A stretch of DNA of 64,000 nucleotides, taken from positions 95,413 to 159,412 of the IMG/VR virus record IMGVR_UViG_3300025728_000008, one strand, 5' to 3'. Numbering within the stretch: the stretch's first letter is position 1; each line of letters starts with the position of its first letter. This stretch comes from a virus. The translations under genes and the position numbers were made by a program. Of the stretch, positions 4,999 to 32,918 are shown in pieces. A model generated the notes under the pieces. That model saw only the letters and a program-made list of their open reading frames with translations, ran no database searches and was not told where the DNA came from.

Positions 4999-7900
4999 TT
5001 GGCAGGAAGTAATGATTTAAATATATCACTAAAAGCCCAAGTTGTAAAGTTAAAGGTAGAATTAGATGCAAAGGGTAGTAAGCTACCACAACAAGTAAAC
5101 AATATCTCTAAGATGTTGTCAAATAATCCTGTTAAACTTAAAGTTAAGCTTGAAGCTAAATTAGGTGATTTAACTAAACAAATGAAATCTATTAGTACAT
5201 CTTTACAGTCTAAACCTATGAAGATGAAAGTAGAACTTGATGTTGCAGGTTCGGCTACTCACATCAAAAAACAAATGCAAGACATTTATAAAACTGTTGA
5301 TGACTTCAATAAGAAATATGGCGCTCAAGTCAAAAAGATGAATCAACAAATCAACCAAGCTTCTAAGTCTCAAGGTAAAGCGCAATCAAATATTTCAACA
5401 AATGCTCCTATCGGGAACTTTAATAATATTAAGCAATACACAGACCAGATTAAAAAAGCTCAAGCTATTTTAAATGGCAAGTTTGGTGACGGTATTTTCA
5501 AAGCTACACAATTCAAAGATGCTAAAGGTAATCTTACAGGATTCGTAGCAGAGTTACAAAAAGCAACAGGTGTTATTGAAAAACTTAAATATTCTTGGAA
5601 TAGTAAGAGTCAAGCATTTGAAGTTATTAATAGACAAACTATTGATAATACAAATAAAGGTGCTCAACAAATTCAAAACACTTTAAAACAATTAAAGAAT
5701 GAAATTAACAATCTTGGTAAAGGTACAGACAAGTCATCTTTATTCAATGATTTAAGCAAAATCAAAAAAGCATTATCAGAAGACGGTGGAAGAAACTTCA
5801 CTAAACAAATGGTTACAGATTTACAGAGTGCTATCAAAGCTGAACAACAATTAGCACAATCTGCAAAAGCAAGAAATGTAGCATTAGCACAAGAAGCGAA
5901 ATTAGTAGCTGACCTAAAGAGACTAAGAGGAACTGCTTTAACTGCTACTAAAAAGCAAGATACTGATTTTAAGAATGAGTTTAGTAAACTTATCCAACAA
6001 GCTAATAAAGTTTCAAAAACAGAAGACCCTGCAAAAGCAGTAAAAGATATTCGTCTTGCATCACAAGCTTTAGTTAATGACCAAAACAAGGTAATTGCTA
6101 AAGAAAGAGAAACACAAGCAGTATTAAAAGAAACTATCAAGTTAAGACAACAACTTAAAGAAGTTTTACGTTCAATGCCAAGTGATGATGCTAGTAATAA
6201 ATTAAAACGTCAAATGGTTACAGAAGCTATCACTGCTACACAACAAATCAAGACATACGAACAACTAGCAAATGCAAAGAAAAACCTTCAAAATATCTCT
6301 AATAAACAATGGATGGATAATGACCAAAATAGAGCTAAGTCTCTAATCGAAAGTTTAAAATCTGTACAGAGACAATTTGAAGCTATAGGTAAAACACCTG
6401 CAAAACTAACACAATTTATGGGAGTTATTGACCAAAGAGCTACACAAAAACTAAGTCAAAACACTCAAGATATCCGTAATGCATTGACTACATATCAAAG
6501 AATGTTAGCAGATGAAAATCGCAAAATTAAAGCAAGAGAAAAAGAGATTCGTCTAGGGCAAGATATCACTGCTAAATTTGGTGGAGGAGACTCAGCTAAA
6601 TTTAAGAATATGCAACAGCAAATCTTTGGCGATGGTACATTGACTTCAAGAGCAATCAAAGACTTGCAGAATTATATCGGAACTGTTGAAAGAGCTAAAG
6701 TAGCATCCATCTCATTTGGTCGTGATGGTATTGACCAGATGGGTAATAGAGTTAAGCAAATGTCTGTTATGTTCCAAGGTCAAGGAGAGCATGTACGTAA
6801 AGTAACATATGCAATGACAGAAGGTTCAAACAGGATACGACAAACATCAGACGAAATGGTTCGTAACCTTAACCGTAACTTGAGTGCATGGGAAAAATTC
6901 AAAGTAATGATGTCGTCAGCTCCAGTATGGATGATTTCACAACAAGCTATGATGGCTCCAATTCAAGGTCTTCAAGGTATGGTACAAGAAATCTTAAAAG
7001 TTGACCAAGCGTTAACAGAATTAAGAAGGGTAGCAAGCCCAACTCAAAACATTGATATCTTATTCGGAAATGCAGTTGAAATGTCTGGTAAGCTTGGTAA
7101 TAATATCCATGATATTATGAAGGGTATGAATGAGTTCGCTCGTACATTCGGAGATTTCAATGAACGCCAATTAACAGCTATTACAGAGACAGCAACATTA
7201 ATGTCTAACGTATCTGATTTATCAGTTGAAGAATCTCAAAAATCTCTAGTAGGTACAATGAATGCATTTAACATTGAAGCAGAAGATTCTATCAGAATCG
7301 TAGATGCACTGAACGAAGTAGATAACAACTATGCTATTAGTACAAAACAATTAGCAGAAGGTCTACAAAAATCTGCATCAGCAGGTAAAACATTCGGTGT
7401 AGGACTTGAAGAAAACATTGGTCATATTACTGCAATTGGAGCAGTAACAATGGAGTCTGGTAACATCATTGGTAACTCATTAAAAACAATTTATTCTCGT
7501 ATGACAACAATGAAAGATTCAGAAGCAACATTACGTAGTGTTGGAATTGCAATGAATACAATTGGAGAAAATGGAGTTAAAAACGTTAAGCCAGTAGCTA
7601 ACATCATTGATGAACTAGGTAAAAAGTGGTTCTTATTAAGTGATGCAGAACGTCAAAATATTGCTGTTAAATTAGCAGGAAGACATCAGTTAACTCGTTT
7701 CCTTGCTATGATGAACAACTATGATATGGCTGTAAAAGCAACAGCTACAGCATATAAATCTCAAGGTTCAGCAATGCGAGAAAATGAGAAATACATGCAA
7801 TCATTTGAATCTAAAATCAATAAGCTTAAAAATGGATTTACGGAAATGTCATTGGCTATGGGTAAAGCATTCCTAAGTGGTGGAATGGAAATGGCTATTT

Positions 7901-10900
7901 CTGGATTAGCAGGAATTGCTAAAGGAGTTACAACTGTAACACAGTCATTTGGTGCATTGTCTACTATCGGTTTAGTTATTGGTGCAGTAATGACTAAGAT
8001 GGGTGCTTTCAGCAATATGTTTGGACGAATTGGCGCAACAGTTGGTGTATTCAAACAGGGTATGCGTGAAGTAACTGTAGCATCTAATGGAACTGCAACT
8101 GCAATGGAGAAGTTCAAAGGTGGTATGAATGGAGTTATCACAACATCAACAGGTGGAGCAACTGCATTCGGTGCAATGAGTAAAGCTGTAAAAGGATTTG
8201 CTCTTTCTTTAGGTAGTATGTTAGGAATGGGTGCAATATTCTTTGCAATCGGTGCAGGAGTAGAATATTTAATTGGCAAATACCAAAAAGCAAAACAAGA
8301 ACAACAAGAGCTTCAAAAACGTATTAATGACCAAGTTCAAGCATATCGCAAGAGTTCAGATGGACTTGAAGGATTAATCAAACAATATGAAGCATTTGAA
8401 AAAGCAGGAGACAGTATCAAGAAAGGTACTAGAGAATATGACGAGTTTATGATTGTACAATCTAAACTTGCTCAAGCAATGCCAAATATGGTTAGAGAGA
8501 TTGACGCACAAGGTCAAGCTCATATGAGAACATCAAAAGAACTTAGAGAACATGTTAAGAACACAAAAGAACTTTCTGAACTTCAAGCAAAAGCTACTAA
8601 CTCAGCATTTAAAAAGAACATAGAAGATGAAGCTAAAGCATTATCGAAACTAGTAGAAGAAGAGAAGAAAATCAAAAAAGAACGTGATGAATACAAGAAA
8701 GGCGCAGTAGACTGGAAAGCAGGTACAGGCGAGTCAGAAGAAGATAGACTTAAAAAGACAGAACAGTACAACATGAAAATTGCTCAATGGAATCAAAAAG
8801 TATATGAACAAACACAAAAATCGACAAAACTAATTCAAGACCAAGCACGTGCTTATCTTGAAGCAGAAGGATACATGTCAAAACTTGGTGCAGGTGCTCA
8901 AGGTGTTGTAGATACATTCGCTAAAATGAATAGTGATTCAATACAAGCTCTTGTTAAAAAAGGTGCTCCACAAAAAGAAATCCAAGCTATGATGAGTAGT
9001 ATTACTAGAGATAGTCAAGAAGTCGGAAAAGTTTGGGCAGGAGCATTTGACAAAATGGCTCAAGGTATTAACAGAGGAACAGTAGAAGGTCAACGTGCCA
9101 TTGATAAAATCAAAGCTGACTTAGGTTCTATCGGGAAAGCCATTCCAGAAGATTTATTTAAACTTGATAAAAATAACAGCATAGATGACGTTAAACGTAA
9201 CCTAGAAGGATTAATTGATATCGGTCAAAAGGTTAAATCTGCCAATGGTGGAACATGGCAATCATTAGCTCAAGAAGCTCAGAAGTATGGATTAAGTGCA
9301 AGAGATGCAGAACAGTTTGTAACAAAACTTGGAACACAATCTCAAAACGCAGAAATCAAAGCTAAAGCTTTAGAAAATTCTGCTAATGGTATCGGGACAG
9401 CAATGGATGCAGGAACAGAAGGAATCAACGGACAAACAGACGCTCTTAAAGATTACGAAGAAGCTATCCTTGGTGCGATTGATGCACAGAAAGAATTGTT
9501 CGGATATAAGAACGAAGAACTAGGACAAATGAAAGGTCACTTAGAAGCAATGAAAACTGCTCAATTGCTATATGGTGAAAACGCAAAAGGAACTCAACTA
9601 TGGGCTGAATCTGGCGAAAAGCTATCTCAATTCTTAGGAATTTCCAAAGAACAGGTAACTGGAAACGTTGATGGATTATTAGAAACAGTTAAAATTATGG
9701 GAGACCTTGGAATTAAGTACGATGAAAACGGTCAAGCTGTTCTAAATTGGGGAGATGCAACAGAAGGTCAAATTTCTAAGTTTAAAGAAAATGTTCAAAA
9801 GATGGGCTTAGATGTTGATTTCTTAACAGGAAAAACAAGAGAAGCAGGTCGTGGTATCAAAGAAACAGGAGATGCTACAGGTCAAGCAGGAGCTTTATTT
9901 AATGAAGCAGGTCAACGTGTAAACCAAGCAGGACAATTAATCAACGAAGCAGGTCAAAGAATTGACTCAGCAGGAAACATTATTAATGAAGCAGGGGACA
10001 AAGTTTCTCAAGGTGGCGAGAAAATGGGTCAAGCAGGTGAAAAGGTTCAACCTTTCATCGACAAGATTCAAGAACTTGCTGATAAATCTGGTAAATCTGG
10101 ACAAGAAATTGTTGAAGGATTACAGAAAGTAAACCTTGCAGACTTTAGCCAAGTCCAAGCTAAAGGTAATGAACTAGGTCTAACAATGGATACAGTAGTA
10201 GAATATGCGAAAAAGGCAGGAGCTATTACTCCAGAGGAAATGGCAAAAATCGGAAACTCTGGTGAGAAATTAACATTATTAGAACAAAAAATGAAAGACT
10301 TAGGTTTCGATGAATTTACTGGTAAGTCTAGTGAAACAGCAGGTAAAGTCGAAGGTGACATGAACAGAATCGGTAATGCAGGGCAACCATTATCATTACT
10401 AGAACAAAAAATGAAAGATTTAGGCTTTGATGAAGCATCTAATAAATCAAGTGAAACCGCTACAAAAGTAGAAGGAGATATGAACAGAATCGCCAACTCT
10501 GGAGCACCATTATCAATCCTTGAAACAAAAATGAGAAACCTTGGTTTCGATGAGATGACTAGCGAATCTGAACAGGCTAAAGTTAAATTCTCTGGAGACA
10601 TGACTGCAATTGGTCAGTCTGGAAACTTATTAAATCCTTTAGGTCAAGCAACAGGTCAAGTAGGTCAAAAACTTATTGACATGAACACAGAGGTAGGTAG
10701 AACATCTAGTGGATTCCAAAATGGCATGGCTCAAATTGGTAACTCTGGTGGAAGTCTAGCTCCATTAAAAGAAAACGTTGCACAACTAGGAACTGCAATG
10801 AGCGAAACAAAAGGTACTGTAGAAACAAATGTTAGTGGAATTAATACTTCATTCTCAACATTAGGACAAGGATTAGATACAGGAGCAGGAAGATGGAAAA

Positions 10901-25006: not shown

Positions 25007-27751
25007 ATGGCTTTAAGCGGTAGTTTTGGTACAGATTTTGGTGGCGGTTATCGCTTACAATTAGAATGGTCTGCTACCCAAAATATTTCAAATAACACTA
25101 GTACAATCATGACACGCCTTTACTTAATCAGTAAAGGTTCGTCATGGACAATTAATTCAAGTGCTAGTAAGTATGTAGAATTAAATATTAATGATGGCTC
25201 AGACCATTATTCATCTAAGAGTGAAGGTGGACTTGCAAGCCTTGGAGGAAACCAGAAGAAAGAAATTTTCTGGCATTCATTTACTGTTGGTCATAATAGC
25301 AATGGTACAAAGTCTGTTTATCTTGCAGGTAGATTTGATGTTAATGTAACAATTAGTGGGAGTTATGTCGGAAGACTAGATACTAGTCAAACAGTTACAC
25401 TGGACACAATCCCTCGAAATTCACAGATTACGACTCAACCAGACATTACAGCAGGAAGACCTCATTCATTTACTCTAGAAAGATATTCATCAGAATTTGA
25501 CCACGGAGTAGAATTTTTTGTTGCAGGTCAATTTATTAAACGATTGGATGGAGTAGGTACAAGTGGTACATTTAACTTCTCTAAAGATGAAGTTTATATC
25601 ATGTATCAGAAACTTCAAGCAAATGGATATAATCCAGTTAGTTGTGCGATAAGAGTTTTCACATATAGATATGGAACACAAATAGGAAGTTATGTTGAAC
25701 GTGGTGGAACTTGTTATAATTGGGGTGGTGGTTATGCATCATTTGCAGGTGTTAATAACTATGGTGATTCAATTTCCGTAACAATAAACAATGGTCATCC
25801 AGATATGAGATATAACACAAACTTTACTTTAAATGGAGTATCTATTAAGAATCAGAATGACATGACACAAGGTGTAACTAATGTATCATTCTCTGCTGAA
25901 AAACAAGCAATGTTAAATGCAACACCTACAGTTACAGGAGCTATGGGTAGAGCTACAGTAACAACTTATTGGTATAAGAGTGATGGTGTAACAAAAATTC
26001 AAGTTGCTAATCCAATTTATTCTGACTTTTGGGCGAATGGAGGGAACGCACTAGTAGACCCTACATTTAATCCTACAATTACATATGCCGATACAAATAA
26101 TGACCCTGCAAAGGGTAACACATTAGCAGTAACAGGTAATAACCAATATATTATACAAGATATGTCATTAGTAACTGTTACTCTTGCAGGGGCAACCAAG
26201 GCTACTACAACAAATGGAACAACTATTAAAGAATATGTTGTGTCATTAGGAGGTAAGCAAGTAACACAAGCCCATACAGCAGGAACTACAGATATAACAT
26301 TTGTCATTGGGTCAGTTAGTTCAACCACAAATTTAACTATCGAAATTAAAGCTATTGATAATCGTGGAAGATATAAATCAGCATATAAAACAGTTACAAT
26401 TGTTCCATATTCAAAACCCACTTTAGTAGCAAATGTAACACGTGTAAACAACTTTGAAAACTCAACAGAAATTACAATCAATGGAACAATTTCTCCTTTA
26501 GTTGTAAATAGTTCTGCAAAGAACATTTTATCATCTCTGAAATACAGAAGCAAAACAACGGTTGGAGGAAGTTGGAGTGCTTATTCAGAAATAAAAACAA
26601 CAGCAGTAATTACTGGCTCAAACTTCTCACATCCAAAAATAACTAATACTTATGATAATAGTTATGCATACTCTTTTGAAATTCTTGTTCAAGATATATT
26701 CGGTGCAACAAGCCAGATGCAAGTTAACAGAACTATTGAAAAAGGTAAGCCATTATTCTTCATAGACTATGAGAAATCAACTTTAGGAGTCGGTAAGTTT
26801 CCAGAAAACGCCAACAATGGAATGGAAATTGTAGGAAGACTTGAAGCAGATGGTATTACTTCTAAAATGGGAGTCTTTCAAATTGGTTCACTAACTAGAG
26901 CGAATCATGGTAATGGTGCTACAGAGTTTGCCTACAATGAACTGACAACTGATTTAAATATACTAGGTCGAAATTGGGGTAATAATACAACTCATGATAT
27001 TAATATGAGAGTTTCTGGAAGAATCTACGCAAAAGAAATTTATGCTTGGAATAATGGGGGAATCTGGTTTGATGGTTGGGGAAATATCAAAGGAACAAAT
27101 ATGGCAAACACAGCAGGTAATACTTGGTCTATTAAAGATGGAGATGACCGAAATAGATTCTTAACATATATCGGTAAAGGCTCGACAGGTTCAACAGAAA
27201 TTAGCTCTTACACAAACGGTATTGACTTCTTTCATGACAATTATAAAGCTCTCATGGTATACACTAGTAACTATGGTGTTAATAGAATCCTTCAATTCGG
27301 CAATGGTAATGGTGGTATTTTTAAGTGGCAACAACTTGCTTTAAATTCAGAAGGAAGATTTGAGTTTAGGAAAAGTGATGATTCAGATTGGGCAAAATTA
27401 AGTGGAACATGGGTTGACCCATCATCTAGAAAATACAAGAAAAATATTGAAACATATGAAGAAAGTGCAATCGACATTATTATGAACGCAACACCAGTTA
27501 CTTATCATTTCAAATCTCAAGCAGATGAAGAAAAGAAAATGATTGGACTTATTGCAGAAGATGCACCACATATCATTCAAGCAGATGAAGAAGGAACAGG
27601 TATTAATACATACGGTATGATTACTGTTTCATGGAAAGGCATTCAAGAAAACACTTTAGAAATTAGACAGAATACAGAAAGTATCAACCAGTTAACAAAG
27701 ACAGTTAAAAGACTTGAAGAAGAGATTAAATATTTGAAAGGGGAAATTTAA
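25007..27751 (+). CDS. Tail fibre (DUF859-like N-terminus) with C-terminal peptidase S74 intramolecular chaperone
   Basis: N-terminal MALSGSF...LEWSATQNISNNTS; C-terminal SSRKYKKNI...PVTYHFK...IGLIAED plus coiled coil. Confidence 0.8.
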   Translation: MALSGSFGTDFGGGYRLQLEWSATQNISNNTSTIMTRLYLISKGSSWTINSSASKYVELNINDGSDHYSSKSEGGLASLGGNQKKEIFWHSFTVGHNSNGTKSVYLAGRFDVNVTISGSYVGRLDTSQTVTLDTIPRNSQITTQPDITAGRPHSFTLERYSSEFDHGVEFFVAGQFIKRLDGVGTSGTFNFSKDEVYIMYQKLQANGYNPVSCAIRVFTYRYGTQIGSYVERGGTCYNWGGGYASFAGVNNYGDSISVTINNGHPDMRYNTNFTLNGVSIKNQNDMTQGVTNVSFSAEKQAMLNATPTVTGAMGRATVTTYWYKSDGVTKIQVANPIYSDFWANGGNALVDPTFNPTITYADTNNDPAKGNTLAVTGNNQYIIQDMSLVTVTLAGATKATTTNGTTIKEYVVSLGGKQVTQAHTAGTTDITFVIGSVSSTTNLTIEIKAIDNRGRYKSAYKTVTIVPYSKPTLVANVTRVNNFENSTEITINGTISPLVVNSSAKNILSSLKYRSKTTVGGSWSAYSEIKTTAVITGSNFSHPKITNTYDNSYAYSFEILVQDIFGATSQMQVNRTIEKGKPLFFIDYEKSTLGVGKFPENANNGMEIVGRLEADGITSKMGVFQIGSLTRANHGNGATEFAYNELTTDLNILGRNWGNNTTHDINMRVSGRIYAKEIYAWNNGGIWFDGWGNIKGTNMANTAGNTWSIKDGDDRNRFLTYIGKGSTGSTEISSYTNGIDFFHDNYKALMVYTSNYGVNRILQFGNGNGGIFKWQQLALNSEGRFEFRKSDDSDWAKLSGTWVDPSSRKYKKNIETYEESAIDIIMNATPVTYHFKSQADEEKKMIGLIAEDAPHIIQADEEGTGINTYGMITVSWKGIQENTLEIRQNTESINQLTKTVKRLEEEIKYLKGEI

Positions 27752-30283: not shown

Positions 30284-30463
30284 ATGTTTACAGTCGGTCA
30301 AACAGTTATTGTTAATCAAGGTGGAATTACCTATACAGGAAAGATTCTTAAAGTTTATGAATCTTCTCAGAAGTTGTTATTACTTTTAAATGACAACGGG
30401 CAAATGGTCGTGCCTATGCAGTATTGTACTCCTATGAAAAATAGAATCTCAGAAAGAGACTAA
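30284..30463 (+). CDS. Small hypothetical protein (59 aa, SH3/KOW-like pattern, not in ORF track)
   Basis: MFTVGQTVIV...YTGKILKVYE; RBS-like AAGGATG; fills the gap before 30477. Confidence 0.6.
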   Translation: MFTVGQTVIVNQGGITYTGKILKVYESSQKLLLLLNDNGQMVVPMQYCTPMKNRISERD

Positions 30464-30476
30464 GAGGTGAAATTAA

Positions 30477-31151
30477 ATGGCAAACTTTATCAATATTATA
30501 TTAGATACAACTGCACCAAGTAATCCATATGTCAACATCAATGGAGGTGCTACGTTTACTAATACAGAATTAGTTACAATTGCTATTGGAACTACAGATG
30601 AGGATACTACAGGTTATCAGATTAAAATCTGGGGAACAGTTGATGGAGCATATGACACAAATATCCAGACTACAGAAGGTGCATCTCAATGGATTTCATA
30701 CGCTGATTCCAAACAGATTAAACTTTCTAGTGGTGATGGAAGTAAACAAGTTTCTATTAAAGTCAGAGATGATGTTTACAATGAATCTAGCGTTGCACAA
30801 GACAATATCAATTTAAGCACTACAATTCCTACAGTTAATGTTGGAGCACCAGATACAAGCAAAATTTCTAAGAAAGCACAAAAGAATGTTGCATCATTTA
30901 CATTCTCATGTCCAGAAGCATTTGAAGAGTACAAGGTTAAAGTTGTTACTTCTACAGGAGCAGTTGAAAGTTCTGGAACATTAATTGCAACAGCTAACGG
31001 AAGTTCAAACACATCTGGTAATGCAGGTGGATACAATGCACCAATCACTGTAACAATTACTGGTACAGATTTAGAATTAGCATCTAGCGGTGACGGTTCT
31101 AAAATCATCAAAGTATTCGTTAAGAATAGTGCAGGAACATGGTCTGTATAA
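30477..31151 (+). CDS. Two-domain Ig-like protein, putative filament shaft subunit
   Basis: Internal duplication LDTTAP/LSTTIP and SSGDGSK twice; beta-rich; followed by a terminator. Confidence 0.65.
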   Translation: MANFINIILDTTAPSNPYVNINGGATFTNTELVTIAIGTTDEDTTGYQIKIWGTVDGAYDTNIQTTEGASQWISYADSKQIKLSSGDGSKQVSIKVRDDVYNESSVAQDNINLSTTIPTVNVGAPDTSKISKKAQKNVASFTFSCPEAFEEYKVKVVTSTGAVESSGTLIATANGSSNTSGNAGGYNAPITVTITGTDLELASSGDGSKIIKVFVKNSAGTWSV

Positions 31152-31154
31152 TTT

Positions 31155-31182
31155 AGGGGTTGCTTATGCAACCTCTCTTTTT
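31155..31182 (+). terminator. Intrinsic terminator within the Ig-like cluster
   Basis: AGGGGTTGC-TTAT-GCAACCTCT then CTTTTT. Confidence 0.7.
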
Positions 31183-31201
31183 AGATAAAAGGGGGATTAA
31201 G

Positions 31202-31654
31202 ATGAATTTTATCATTCTAGAATTAGATACAACAGCTCCAACTATTGAAATTTATGCACCTGCATATACCGTAAGAGAAGCAAGTGTTGAGGTTACAATT
31301 GAAGCAGATGAAGAAATAGGAACACCTAATGAGATTTATGTGATTGATGAAAGCGGAACAAGACATGATTATACTTTTAGTAGAGCAGGAAATTATTTGA
31401 CGGGCATTCTAGATTTCAATGGATTCCCTTTAGGACTAGCCAGACTATTTGTTCGTGTTACGGATACGGTTAATAATGTTTCAGAATTGTATGAGAAAAC
31501 TATTACTGTGAGAGAATCATTAACTATACTAAAACCAGTTATATCTGATTACATAGCAAATATACAAACAACAGATATAAAACGGAAAACAGAAATAATT
31601 GACAAGGATAGACAAATTGCTATTTCAAATGGTAAGAGTCGAATTAAGGAGTGA
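31202..31654 (+). CDS. Ig-like protein paralogous to the N-domain of 30477
   Basis: MNFIILELDTTAP and VRVTDTVNNVS; RBS AGGGGG. Confidence 0.65.
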   Translation: MNFIILELDTTAPTIEIYAPAYTVREASVEVTIEADEEIGTPNEIYVIDESGTRHDYTFSRAGNYLTGILDFNGFPLGLARLFVRVTDTVNNVSELYEKTITVRESLTILKPVISDYIANIQTTDIKRKTEIIDKDRQIAISNGKSRIKE

Positions 31655-31659
31655 GTAAT

Positions 31660-31944
31660 ATGAATATATATCAATATGGTGATACAGTTAGATTTGAATG
31701 TGTGTTCTATAATTTTGAAGGTGAAAAAATAGACCCACAACTAATTAAGGTAGTTATTTATGACCAAAAATATAAACAATTAAAAGAAGAAGTTTTAACG
31801 TCAGTTAACAAGAAATCAGTTGGGGAATATTTTTATGATTATACAACACCTAAAAAAGAACAGAAACTTTATTATGAATGGTATGGAGAAATTGATGGCA
31901 CACCATCTCTTCGTAGAGGTTCATTCATGACGAAATTTATTTAG
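31660..31944 (+). CDS. Small beta-sandwich protein (BppU-N-like adaptor, tentative)
   Basis: GDTVRFEC.F...G.KIDP, VGEYFYDY; overlaps or abuts the upstream gene. Confidence 0.5.
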   Translation: MNIYQYGDTVRFECVFYNFEGEKIDPQLIKVVIYDQKYKQLKEEVLTSVNKKSVGEYFYDYTTPKKEQKLYYEWYGEIDGTPSLRRGSFMTKFI

Positions 31945-31958
31945 AGAGGTGTTAGTTT

Positions 31959-32918
31959 ATGGGTATAGTAACAAATGGATTGATTGCATATTGGAATGCT
32001 CAACAAGGTATATCTGGTACTACATGGAATAATATTGCTCCTGCAAATGAAGGTAAATTTGCTTTAACATTAGCTAATACAACAGTTGAAAGTGATAGGG
32101 TTTTATTTAAAGGATTAACTACCAGTAGAGCTTTATCATCTGAAAATGTGGCAGGGATAACATCTCATACTGTTGAAATGTTTATAAGTGCAGATGCTTT
32201 ATATGAATTTGCAGGTGGAGTCCCTTTTTATGCTATTACTACTATGAGTAATCGTGGCGGATTTATTTTAAATACAACCAAGGACATTAACAGGTTAGAA
32301 TATAGCGACACTAGTGGAAGCACTTTTGCAATAACACCAAATAATTCTATTGTTAAAGGTTCAATTGTTCAAATAATTGCTATAGTTGATGCATTAGATT
32401 TAAGTGTTACTTTAGGTGTAAATGGTTCAATATTAACTAGAACAACAACTACTTTTTCAAGTTTGCCAAAATTAGTAGGATTAATTACATTGGGGGTAAG
32501 AAAATATAACACTAGTTATTTTGACCCATTTAAAGGTTATATTTATTCTACTAAAATATATAATAGAGTTCTTACACCAGAAGAGATAACACAAAATTAT
32601 AATAATGGTATAAATGTTGGTCTTGTAAGTAAGCCTACTGCAAATATTATTTCTGTAAGCAAACCAAAAATAAGCAGAATATCTGGACAGGATAGAACAT
32701 ATATTACTTTTAAGTTCGATAAAGATGTTCAAGCGTATAAAGTGATGGTTGGTGGGGTAGATTATAACACTGGATTATTAGCGGATTCTGGTGGAGCTAA
32801 GACAGCAAACACAGAAATCGTTGCAGAGATTGATTATTCAGAGCTGTCAATAGAAGGCTCAAATCGTATAACAATCTATGGTCAAAGTACGGATGGAACT
32901 TGGAGTACAAAAGATTAA
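31959..32918 (+). CDS. LamG/concanavalin-A-like domain protein with C-terminal Ig-like domain
   Basis: GIVTNGLIAYW...W.N and FKGYIYSTKIYNRVLTPEEITQNY LamG motifs; C-terminus resembles the 30477 C-domain. Confidence 0.75.
   Translation: MGIVTNGLIAYWNAQQGISGTTWNNIAPANEGKFALTLANTTVESDRVLFKGLTTSRALSSENVAGITSHTVEMFISADALYEFAGGVPFYAITTMSNRGGFILNTTKDINRLEYSDTSGSTFAITPNNSIVKGSIVQIIAIVDALDLSVTLGVNGSILTRTTTTFSSLPKLVGLITLGVRKYNTSYFDPFKGYIYSTKIYNRVLTPEEITQNYNNGINVGLVSKPTANIISVSKPKISRISGQDRTYITFKFDKDVQAYKVMVGGVDYNTGLLADSGGAKTANTEIVAEIDYSELSIEGSNRITIYGQSTDGTWSTKD

Follow-up and report, generated by a model that had tools for sequence, protein, structure and literature searches.

A phage gene block with a split Ig-like domain and a candidate bead-string fiber joined by donor strands

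Gene Organization of the Locus

The window analyzed here is the right-hand 64 kb of a phage record of 159,412 bp (IMG/VR record IMGVR_UViG_3300025728_000008), which is 82-92% identical, in parts, to KoopaTroopa, C30-3, Thrax5, Tsamsa, and Izhevsk, all Tsamsa-like giant Bacillus siphophages. The block at 30477-32918, located downstream of the tail genes, an amidase gene, and two holin-like genes and upstream of divergent replication genes, contains four genes, three of whose products appear to carry parts of a split immunoglobulin (Ig)-like domain. Our results suggest that the products assemble by donor-strand complementation, in which the N-terminal strand of one subunit would complete the C-terminal domain of the next. 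The Tsamsa counterparts are gp213-gp210, every one annotated as 'hypothetical', and the sole remark on gp213 in the Tsamsa paper is that an Ig domain is present (PMC3903500).

The open reading frames (ORFs) are 30477-31151 (224 aa; MAIN or P0001), 31202-31654 (150 aa, with a good ribosome-binding site; P2 or P0002), 31651/31660-31944 (97/94 aa; P3), and 31959-32918 (319 aa; P0004). These ORFs had been described in a sequence-only reading of the block, and all of its coordinates and quoted motifs were found to be present. The features are as follows.

30284..30463, + strand: small gene (59 aa) directly upstream of the shaft gene; ORF with a phrog_33164 match and a weak DUF2187 Pfam match
30477..31151, + strand: predicted shaft subunit MAIN (224 aa), homologue of Tsamsa gp213, with donor strand, first domain (D1), and second domain (D2) lacking strand G; AlphaFold2 (AF2) model, phrog_10898
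30480..30518, + strand: predicted donor strand (residues 2-9) and DTTAP linker (residues 10-14); conserved N-terminus, dimer model
30519..30815, + strand: D1 (residues 15-113), a complete Big_13/PKD-like Ig domain whose own G strand comes last; fold match, phmmer matches
30816-30830, + strand: STTIP linker after D1; sequence
30831..31148, + strand: D2 (residues 119-224), predicted acceptor domain, ending two residues into the G strand; predicted secondary structure, conserved end, covariation
31155..31186, + strand (hairpin and U-tract also given as 31155-31176): terminator-like hairpin with U-tract between the shaft gene and 31202; RNA folding
31202..31654, + strand: putative chain terminator P2 (150 aa), gp212 homologue; profile alignment to MAIN, no acceptor domain
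31205-31225, 31226-31240, and on to about 31516, + strand: parts of P2, namely donor strand, DTTAP, and complete D1-like domain, followed by a charged tail of ~45 aa
31660..31944, + strand: P3, small beta-sandwich protein (94 aa from the ATG at 31660; the ORF opens with GTG at 31651), partner of P2 and possible adaptor; weak MG2 match, phrog_18294
31959..32603, + strand: LamG/ConA-like lectin head of the putative cap protein (P0004 residues 1-215); PF13385
32622..32915, + strand: acceptor-only domain of the putative cap protein without strand G (P0004 residues 222-319); homology to MAIN D2

Domain Architecture of the Shaft Protein

MAIN begins with M-A-N-F-I-N-I-I-L followed by D-T-T-A-P, and ends with K-V-F-V-K-N-S-A-G-T-W-S-V directly before the stop codon. 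The AF2 model of the monomer (predicted local distance difference test, pLDDT, 93.5) consists of two beta-sandwiches in extended tandem, with residues 1-17 unpaired, in line with the earlier description of a lone strand plus linker at this end. As a whole, the model fits onto pairs of FN3 domains in extended tandem, e.g., CbhA and titin A77-A78, while D1 alone matches a PKD domain (VIA-align Z 9.0, root-mean-square deviation (rmsd) 2.7 Å over 91 residues); fold searches with MAIN returned only generic Ig/FN3/PKD sandwiches. The two domains had been described as Ig-like repeats. Both are beta-sandwiches, but they are not close repeats, and the common stretch is limited to GDGSK and the F strand. 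D1 ends normally, as had been stated, with its own G strand before the STTIP linker. D2 had been said to lack its final strand; it does end at the F-G turn, but it retains WS, the first two residues of strand G, and the chain is thus nicked where G begins. Both the strand-linker N-terminus and the abrupt C-terminus, two residues past the F-G turn, were conserved in 118 of 118 close homologues.

An exhaustive phmmer search with MAIN returned 1,933 relatives. The top matches were proteins of 1,000-7,500 aa, in each of which MAIN residues ~6-120 matched 10-29 times. These giant tandem-repeat proteins carry Big_13 repeats, with scores of 114-142 bits for Big_13 (PF19077), whereas MAIN itself gave no Big_13 match at E ≤ 1 in the Pfam scan. 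The repeat junctions of the giant proteins consist of the F strand, an A-G-N turn, about eleven G-strand residues, D-T-x-x-P, and the first strand of the next domain. The C-terminus of MAIN contributes the F strand, the turn, and two residues, and its N-terminus contributes the rest of the strand, the linker, and the next domain, so that the end of MAIN joined to its start gives an uninterrupted Big_13 repeat junction, to within two residues. Because the same sequence runs unbroken in the giant proteins, MAIN looks like a Big_13-type tandem array that has been cut at the start of the G strand.

Longer shaft homologues of 335-399 aa were also found (P0026, P0180, P0193, P0226, P0285, and P0321). 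P0026, the variant that was inspected, has one extra complete copy of D1 between unchanged plug and socket ends, and the phmmer match ranges of the other five suggest extra N-terminal sequence or repeats.

Subunit Joint: Dimer Model and Covariation

Two copies of MAIN were submitted to complex prediction with its alignment, the modeled joint being MAIN-MAIN only. The ipSAE of the dimer model was 0.57 (runs 0.49, 0.57, and 0.62) compared with 0.26 for the best control, a score that supports binding but does not show it. In calibration, 20 of 30 homomers of solved structure scored this high, as against 1 of 23 proteins whose solved structure is a single chain. The contact agreement of the runs was 100%, and the partner pLDDT was at least 91.

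In the model, residues 1-12 and the D1 loop 99-103 of the donor copy contact residues 119-136, 205-213, and 223 of the acceptor copy, and the reverse contacts are absent, making the joint asymmetric. Donor residues 3-9 run antiparallel to strand F (205-212) and parallel to A/A' (122-132). The slot between A' and F that they occupy is the canonical position of strand G in the Ig fold, and the first donor residues adjoin acceptor residue 223, which is what a nick in the strand should give. The sequence-only reading had predicted that a homodimer would place its N-terminus in the C-domain groove of the partner, which is the arrangement obtained; a C-domain that is complete by itself, or filled by its own N-terminus, is not what the models show. 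The contact is end to end, because D1 on the donor side gives only the loop 99-103 beyond the strand, and the five-residue linker between D1 and D2 therefore could not close it within one chain. Recall of a solved complex is unlikely, since PDB sequence and profile searches with all four proteins found no relatives and gave only weak CBM40-type matches for the LamG head.

Covariation, as an independent line of evidence, was measured as mutual information with average product correction among 246 distinct full-length homologues (effective number 165), over 24,090 pairs at least five residues apart. The pairs 6-208 and 101-136 ranked 7th and 9th, respectively, and the best-coupled partners of position 5 were 124 and 122. 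At 6-208, Y goes with Q, K with E, T with A, and N with S/T/V; at 101-136, Y/H/W with K alternates with G with F/Y/W; and at 5-124, F with G alternates with I/V with A/T. These swaps are chemically sensible and compensatory. All three pairs consist of residues that the dimer model sets across the subunit boundary; of these, residue 101 sits on D1 at its N-terminal pole, and residue 136 on D2 at its far pole. The information lies in the individual top pairs only: a global test of strand positions 3-9 against the whole interface set, compared with D1, was not significant.

Groove residue 208 of MAIN follows strand residue 6 of MAIN itself across non-redundant loci, with 0 of 5,000 shuffles (which ignore phylogeny) reaching the observed value. 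No clear coupling was found between residue 208 and the equivalent strand residue of P2 (451 of 5,000 shuffles), and the cross-protein couplings of MAIN residue 6 with the acceptor protein and of P2 with MAIN were not significant (about 450 of 5,000 shuffles).

Cap, Terminator, and Small Partner Proteins

P2 begins with M-N-F-I-I-L-E-L and D-T-T-A-P. Its residues 1-111 align with MAIN residues 1-121, a stretch that includes the G strand (hhalign 89%, E = 2.3e-6). P2 therefore comprises strand, linker, and a complete D1-like domain including strand G, followed by a charged tail of ~45 residues, in agreement with the earlier description. Genome by genome, unusual residues recur in the donor strands of both MAIN and P2, including a K-ending strand in locus L009, I-T-V in the CP-51 group, and V-Y-L in L047, as would be expected if both fit related sockets.

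The C-terminal domain of P0004 is homologous to MAIN D2 (BLASTP E = 4e-7; PHROG cross-match) and stops at the same point, and residues 60-210 match PF13385 (Laminin_G_3) with 38.5 bits, above the cut-off of 27.6. The earlier assignment of this protein as LamG plus a homologous truncated domain thus holds. The head also gave weak profile matches (E 0.003-0.03) to CBM40 sialic-acid-binding (sialidase-type) modules. The model of the LamG protein was of low confidence (pLDDT 67.8), with fold matches to generic ConA-like jelly rolls. Its top fold matches were to the lectin-like subdomain of clostridial neurotoxin binding domains, and with a template modeling score of about 0.4 and an rmsd of about 14 Å they indicate fold class only.

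Three proteins of the whole phage genome have a donor strand or an acceptor domain, which makes exactly two of each. P2 and P3 form a single fused protein of 269-277 aa in L023, L024, and L025 (IMG/VR contigs, about 8697-9530), a Rosetta-stone hint that the tail of P2 and the 31660 product may work as one unit. The fusions show only that the two proteins go together; the 31660 product is a putative anchor.

The Module in Other Phages

Relatives of the module were found in at least 517 viral loci of IMG/VR, and the homologues of MAIN form more than 1,000 protein clusters. The hidden Markov model analysis covered 85 loci, with an acceptor counted when it lay within 4 kb on the same strand. A neighbor with an acceptor domain was present in 80 of the 85 loci, P2 in 45, and P3 in 42; three distant homologues were on contigs too short for gene context. 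The acceptor-only proteins range from 123 to 823 aa, and all those inspected end in the same motif, a few residues past a conserved tryptophan. Their heads vary: LamG of 311-474 aa, an unrelated head of 630 aa, or none. Judging from these sequences, the socket is conserved and the heads are swapped across loci, which is the outcome expected when a search of synteny for exchanged tips was proposed.

The position of the cassette varies as well. Tsamsa-like phages have it behind the lysis genes. In one SPbeta-like prophage, it is preceded by the tail-tip gene (Tal) and followed by the lysis genes; another prophage has it between the tail tube gene and the tail chaperone genes, and in gut phages it lies among fiber-like genes. 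On a bacterial contig of 1.2 Mb, two very large genes without a Pfam match (1,823 and 1,473 aa) precede it and a glucosaminidase gene follows. In the myovirus CP-51 (L004, 7001-9398), a four-gene module, gp159-162, is found among helicase, Sir2, replication, and topoisomerase genes. This distribution suggests a cassette that is mobile between phage morphotypes. A compact gut-type version (L050 and similar loci) consists of a shaft of 220 aa and a socket protein of 125 aa with an extra tail of 25 residues. Just upstream of this shaft gene, a 45-aa ORF (7860-7997) has a donor-like end, S-Y-L-Y-L-E-L-N-T-K-G-V, and this string could be due to chance, a duplicated remnant, or a small plug protein.

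Small ORFs adjoin the module in several genomes. The 59-aa gene at 30284 is a member of the same block in Tsamsa-like loci, where its position is kept, and jackhmmer found relatives of its product in Tsamsa-like loci only; the protein has a weak DUF2187/KOW-like pattern. Other small ORFs occur next to the module in CP-51 (gp158), BcoS-136 (gp209), and L003 (47 aa, in the interval between P3 and the cap).

Two further features of the window were recorded. A perfect sigma-70 consensus (TTGACA, 17 nt, and TATAAT with an upstream TG) is located on the minus strand at 29894-29866, between the two holin-like genes and directed against the late operon. At 25007-27751, a tail protein of 914 aa carries DUF859 and a C-terminal Peptidase_S74 intramolecular chaperone domain, which is typical of auto-cleaving fibers and spikes, and this protein is a more conventional candidate for the receptor-binding protein of the phage.

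Hairpin Downstream of the Shaft Gene

The terminator noted earlier just after the shaft gene is a real hairpin with a U-tract by RNA folding, and in ten Tsamsa-like relatives the stem is kept and the loop is variable. More distant Bacillus siphophages have unrelated hairpins at the same intergenic spot, and no hairpin was found there in SPbeta-like and gut-type loci. According to RNAfold, the U-tract (CTCTTTTT) can alternatively pair with the Shine-Dalgarno sequence of 31202 (AAAGGGGG) as a second hairpin at 31176-31201, and this pairing is also present in the ten relatives. It might possibly damp the translation of P2. Together, the hairpin and the possible masking of the Shine-Dalgarno sequence suggest that MAIN may be made in excess. 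Two soil metatranscriptome contigs from a relative with 85-90% identity begin inside the shaft gene, cross the hairpin, and run to where the LamG gene ends; such contigs cannot show transcript level, start, or end, and thus say nothing on attenuation at the hairpin.

Interpretation and Alternatives

We consider that the best explanation of the block is a self-assembling bead-string fiber whose subunits are joined by completing a split Ig-like domain in trans, with a probability of roughly 0.6. The first nine residues of MAIN would be the missing strand for the C-terminal domain of the neighboring subunit. The LamG protein has a socket only; it could occupy just one end of the chain, where it would display its carbohydrate-binding head. 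P2, with a plug and a complete domain only, would close the opposite end, and its tail together with P3 would make up a unit with a probable link to some other component. The order of the chain would be LamG-cap <- MAIN(n) <- P2(+P3), where n is one or higher, probably higher. Joints between MAIN subunits are favored because in gut-type loci MAIN is the only protein with a donor motif within 8 kb, leaving no other filler for its socket. With respect to the sequence-only reading, computation bears out the donor strand, the acceptor lacking strand G, the head-to-tail arrangement of MAIN, the acceptor-only LamG protein, and the donor-only P2, while polymer length, virion site, and anchor are inferred.

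What the computation itself gives is the split architecture and how well it is conserved, the geometry of the model, and the covariation. The length of the homopolymer, cytoplasmic assembly without a dedicated chaperone, attachment to the virion (most likely in the tail region), and binding to glycans of the host surface are our inferences. In its widest form, the proposal would describe a family common to siphoviruses and myoviruses of Bacillota, including gut phages, which builds cytoplasmic pilus-like homopolymers without chaperone, usher, sortase, or protease, with length set by subunit supply, exchangeable lectin caps, and a plug-only terminator. We put this wide form forward tentatively, the balance of odds being somewhat against it.

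Several points weigh against the fiber. Its basis is computation throughout. Covariation by itself cannot tell contacts in cis from those in trans, and the shuffles for residue 208 take no account of phylogeny. The CP-51 module is far from the structural genes. The absence of gp213 from the assigned bands of the Tsamsa virion also counts here, as weak evidence given that so few bands were assigned. The 59-aa protein upstream could be an accessory or assembly helper, which would undercut the claim that no chaperone is needed. Finally, variants of MAIN with extra D1 point to a length encoded in the gene, as one would sooner expect with a fixed stoichiometry than with free polymerization.

This last point leads to the strongest competitor, in which the plug-and-socket joints are real but form a defined short complex of one LamG cap, one MAIN, and one P2-P3, i.e., an accessory carbohydrate-binding arm whose length does not vary. 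The copy numbers of phage parts are usually fixed, as is the stoichiometry of appendages, donors and acceptors are balanced 2:2 in the genome, and length variants arise through additions of D1 inside MAIN. The precedent of BppA on the Tuc2009 baseplate is also a single joint (PMC4742702). However, the MAIN-MAIN dimer model passes its controls, groove residue 208 tracks the strand of MAIN rather than that of P2, gut-type loci have no other donor for the socket of MAIN, and the hairpin after MAIN with the possible masking of the 31202 Shine-Dalgarno sequence suggests an excess of MAIN. We regard the fixed arm as unlikely, and give the polymer roughly twice the odds of a fixed 1:1:1 complex.

A second alternative concerns where the chain would act. 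It might form away from the virion, as a late glycan-binding polymer released at lysis (binding, e.g., wall debris or matrix) or in an intracellular role. This would suit the location of the module after the lysis cassette here and among replication genes in CP-51, its behavior as a mobile cassette common to siphoviruses and myoviruses, and the lack of gp213 among the assigned Tsamsa virion bands. It is harder to reconcile with the position of the module within the tail/fiber gene block of other phages, and with the four translations, in which no signal peptide (as had been reported) and no membrane segment was read. Baseplate appendages and fiber-like structures are visible in micrographs of relatives (PMC3903500; PMC10454425), although they are not assigned to these genes. 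An off-virion chain is somewhat less favored than the fixed arm. Closed forms, in which the N-terminal strand fills its own C-domain or is swapped reciprocally in a dimer so that no open chain results, are very improbable: a contact in cis would satisfy the covariation equally and domain-swapped dimers are common, but in the AF2 monomer residues 1-17 have no pairing partner and the chain can be superposed on FN3 pairs in extended tandem, the dimer model inserts one strand only in an end-to-end contact beyond the cis reach of the five-residue linker, and donor-only and acceptor-only partners are coded in the same operon.

As to the site of the fiber, the reading that we prefer is a tail-associated, glycan-binding accessory fiber. 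In the gel and mass spectrometry analysis of the Tsamsa virion, the sole virion proteome found, only six bands were assigned, none of which was gp210-213 (PMC3903500). Micrographs of Tsamsa (PMC3903500) and of Kirov (PMC10454425) show baseplate appendages or a protruding fiber, with no gene assignment. The Izhevsk, Kirov, and Thrax papers contain nothing on these genes, the literature yielded nothing usable on the CP-51 proteome and no cryo-electron microscopy structure of SPbeta, and a search for YomU/YomG gave only irrelevant papers.

If the fiber is confirmed, it would mean that phages use donor-strand complementation in the cytoplasm without machinery, and it would explain late genes annotated as 'hypothetical' that are very common (at least 517 viral contigs, over 1,000 protein clusters). 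It would also provide a simple rule for swapping accessory receptor-binding heads between phages, in which the socket is kept and the head exchanged, and a small, self-assembling, orthogonal plug-and-socket pair for protein engineering. The homopolymer, if true, would add a new class to the known phage appendages and would amount to a protein-polymer kit that is modular by nature. In addition, the proposal makes testable the old practical question of which genes form the side appendages of the large Bacillus siphophages, a group that includes typing phages of B. cereus and B. anthracis.

Comparison With Known Systems

No description of a phage fiber assembled by donor strands was found in the literature. 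A match on contractile-injection sheaths proved to be a different handshake. The closest phage precedent appears to be the BppU-BppA joint of the Tuc2009 tripod, whose crystal structure shows BppU lending a C-terminal hairpin to the otherwise incomplete beta-sandwich of BppA, the carbohydrate-binding protein (PMC4742702). Similar to BppA, which is fastened to the Tuc2009 virion because another protein supplies its missing strands, P0004 is predicted from its sequence to be an accessory protein with a carbohydrate-binding module and an incomplete beta-sandwich, and the composite domain of Tuc2009 resembles titin Ig (PMC4742702). However, Tuc2009 donates a C-terminal hairpin of two strands at one joint and has no subunit with both plug and socket (PMC4742702), whereas the module described here would donate a single N-terminal strand and contains one protein that is self-compatible. 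PDB profile searches with the module proteins gave no Tuc2009 BppU-BppA chain among the matches listed.

Donor-strand complementation is the textbook route for bacterial pili, which are assembled outside the cell with dedicated machinery. In chaperone-usher pili (Fim, Pap, Caf1), each Ig-like subunit is short of strand G and is completed when it takes up, antiparallel to F, the N-terminal extension of the subunit that follows; FimH, the adhesin at the tip, consists of a lectin domain and a socket-only pilin domain, and a terminator subunit exists. Consistent with this, MAIN D2 is by its sequence an Ig domain lacking G, the N-terminal strand is predicted to lie in the groove antiparallel to F, with which the covariation of 6-208 and 5-124 agrees, and the block codes for a lectin-plus-socket protein comparable to FimH and for a plug-only candidate terminator. 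Unlike chaperone-usher pilins, the subunits have no signal peptide (MAIN and P2 start directly with their donor strands), the shaft subunit has an extra complete domain, the phage belongs to those of Gram-positive hosts, and assembly would be cytoplasmic. The 159-kb phage genome gave no match to the PapD-like chaperone (PF00345), the usher (PF00577), or sortase (PF04203), the LPXTG motif is absent from the four translations, and the Pfam Fimbrial family (PF00419) reached only 13.3 bits (E = 0.1), below its cut-off of 25.6.

TasA and the subunits of archaeal and type V pili are secreted cellular proteins that belong to different folds and families, and no such family was among the matches listed in the Pfam scan of the module proteins. 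Nevertheless, donor-strand exchange is used by the TasA fibers of B. subtilis, archaeal bundling pili and threads, and type V pili (PMC9674648). The likeness lies in head-to-tail strand donation, chaperone-independent or triggered by a protease, that gives a filament one subunit wide; the difference is that these systems are without separate cap and terminator genes bearing swapped heads of this kind.

The giant Big_13 surface proteins of Bacillota are similar in another respect, in that their repeat unit corresponds by homology to D1 together with the linker and the strand. They are single covalent chains, whereas in the phage module the array is split into separate gene products at a fixed point of the fold. 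Taken together, what is new here is the combination of a single N-terminal donor, a subunit with both plug and socket, and dedicated genes for cap and terminator, in a large family.

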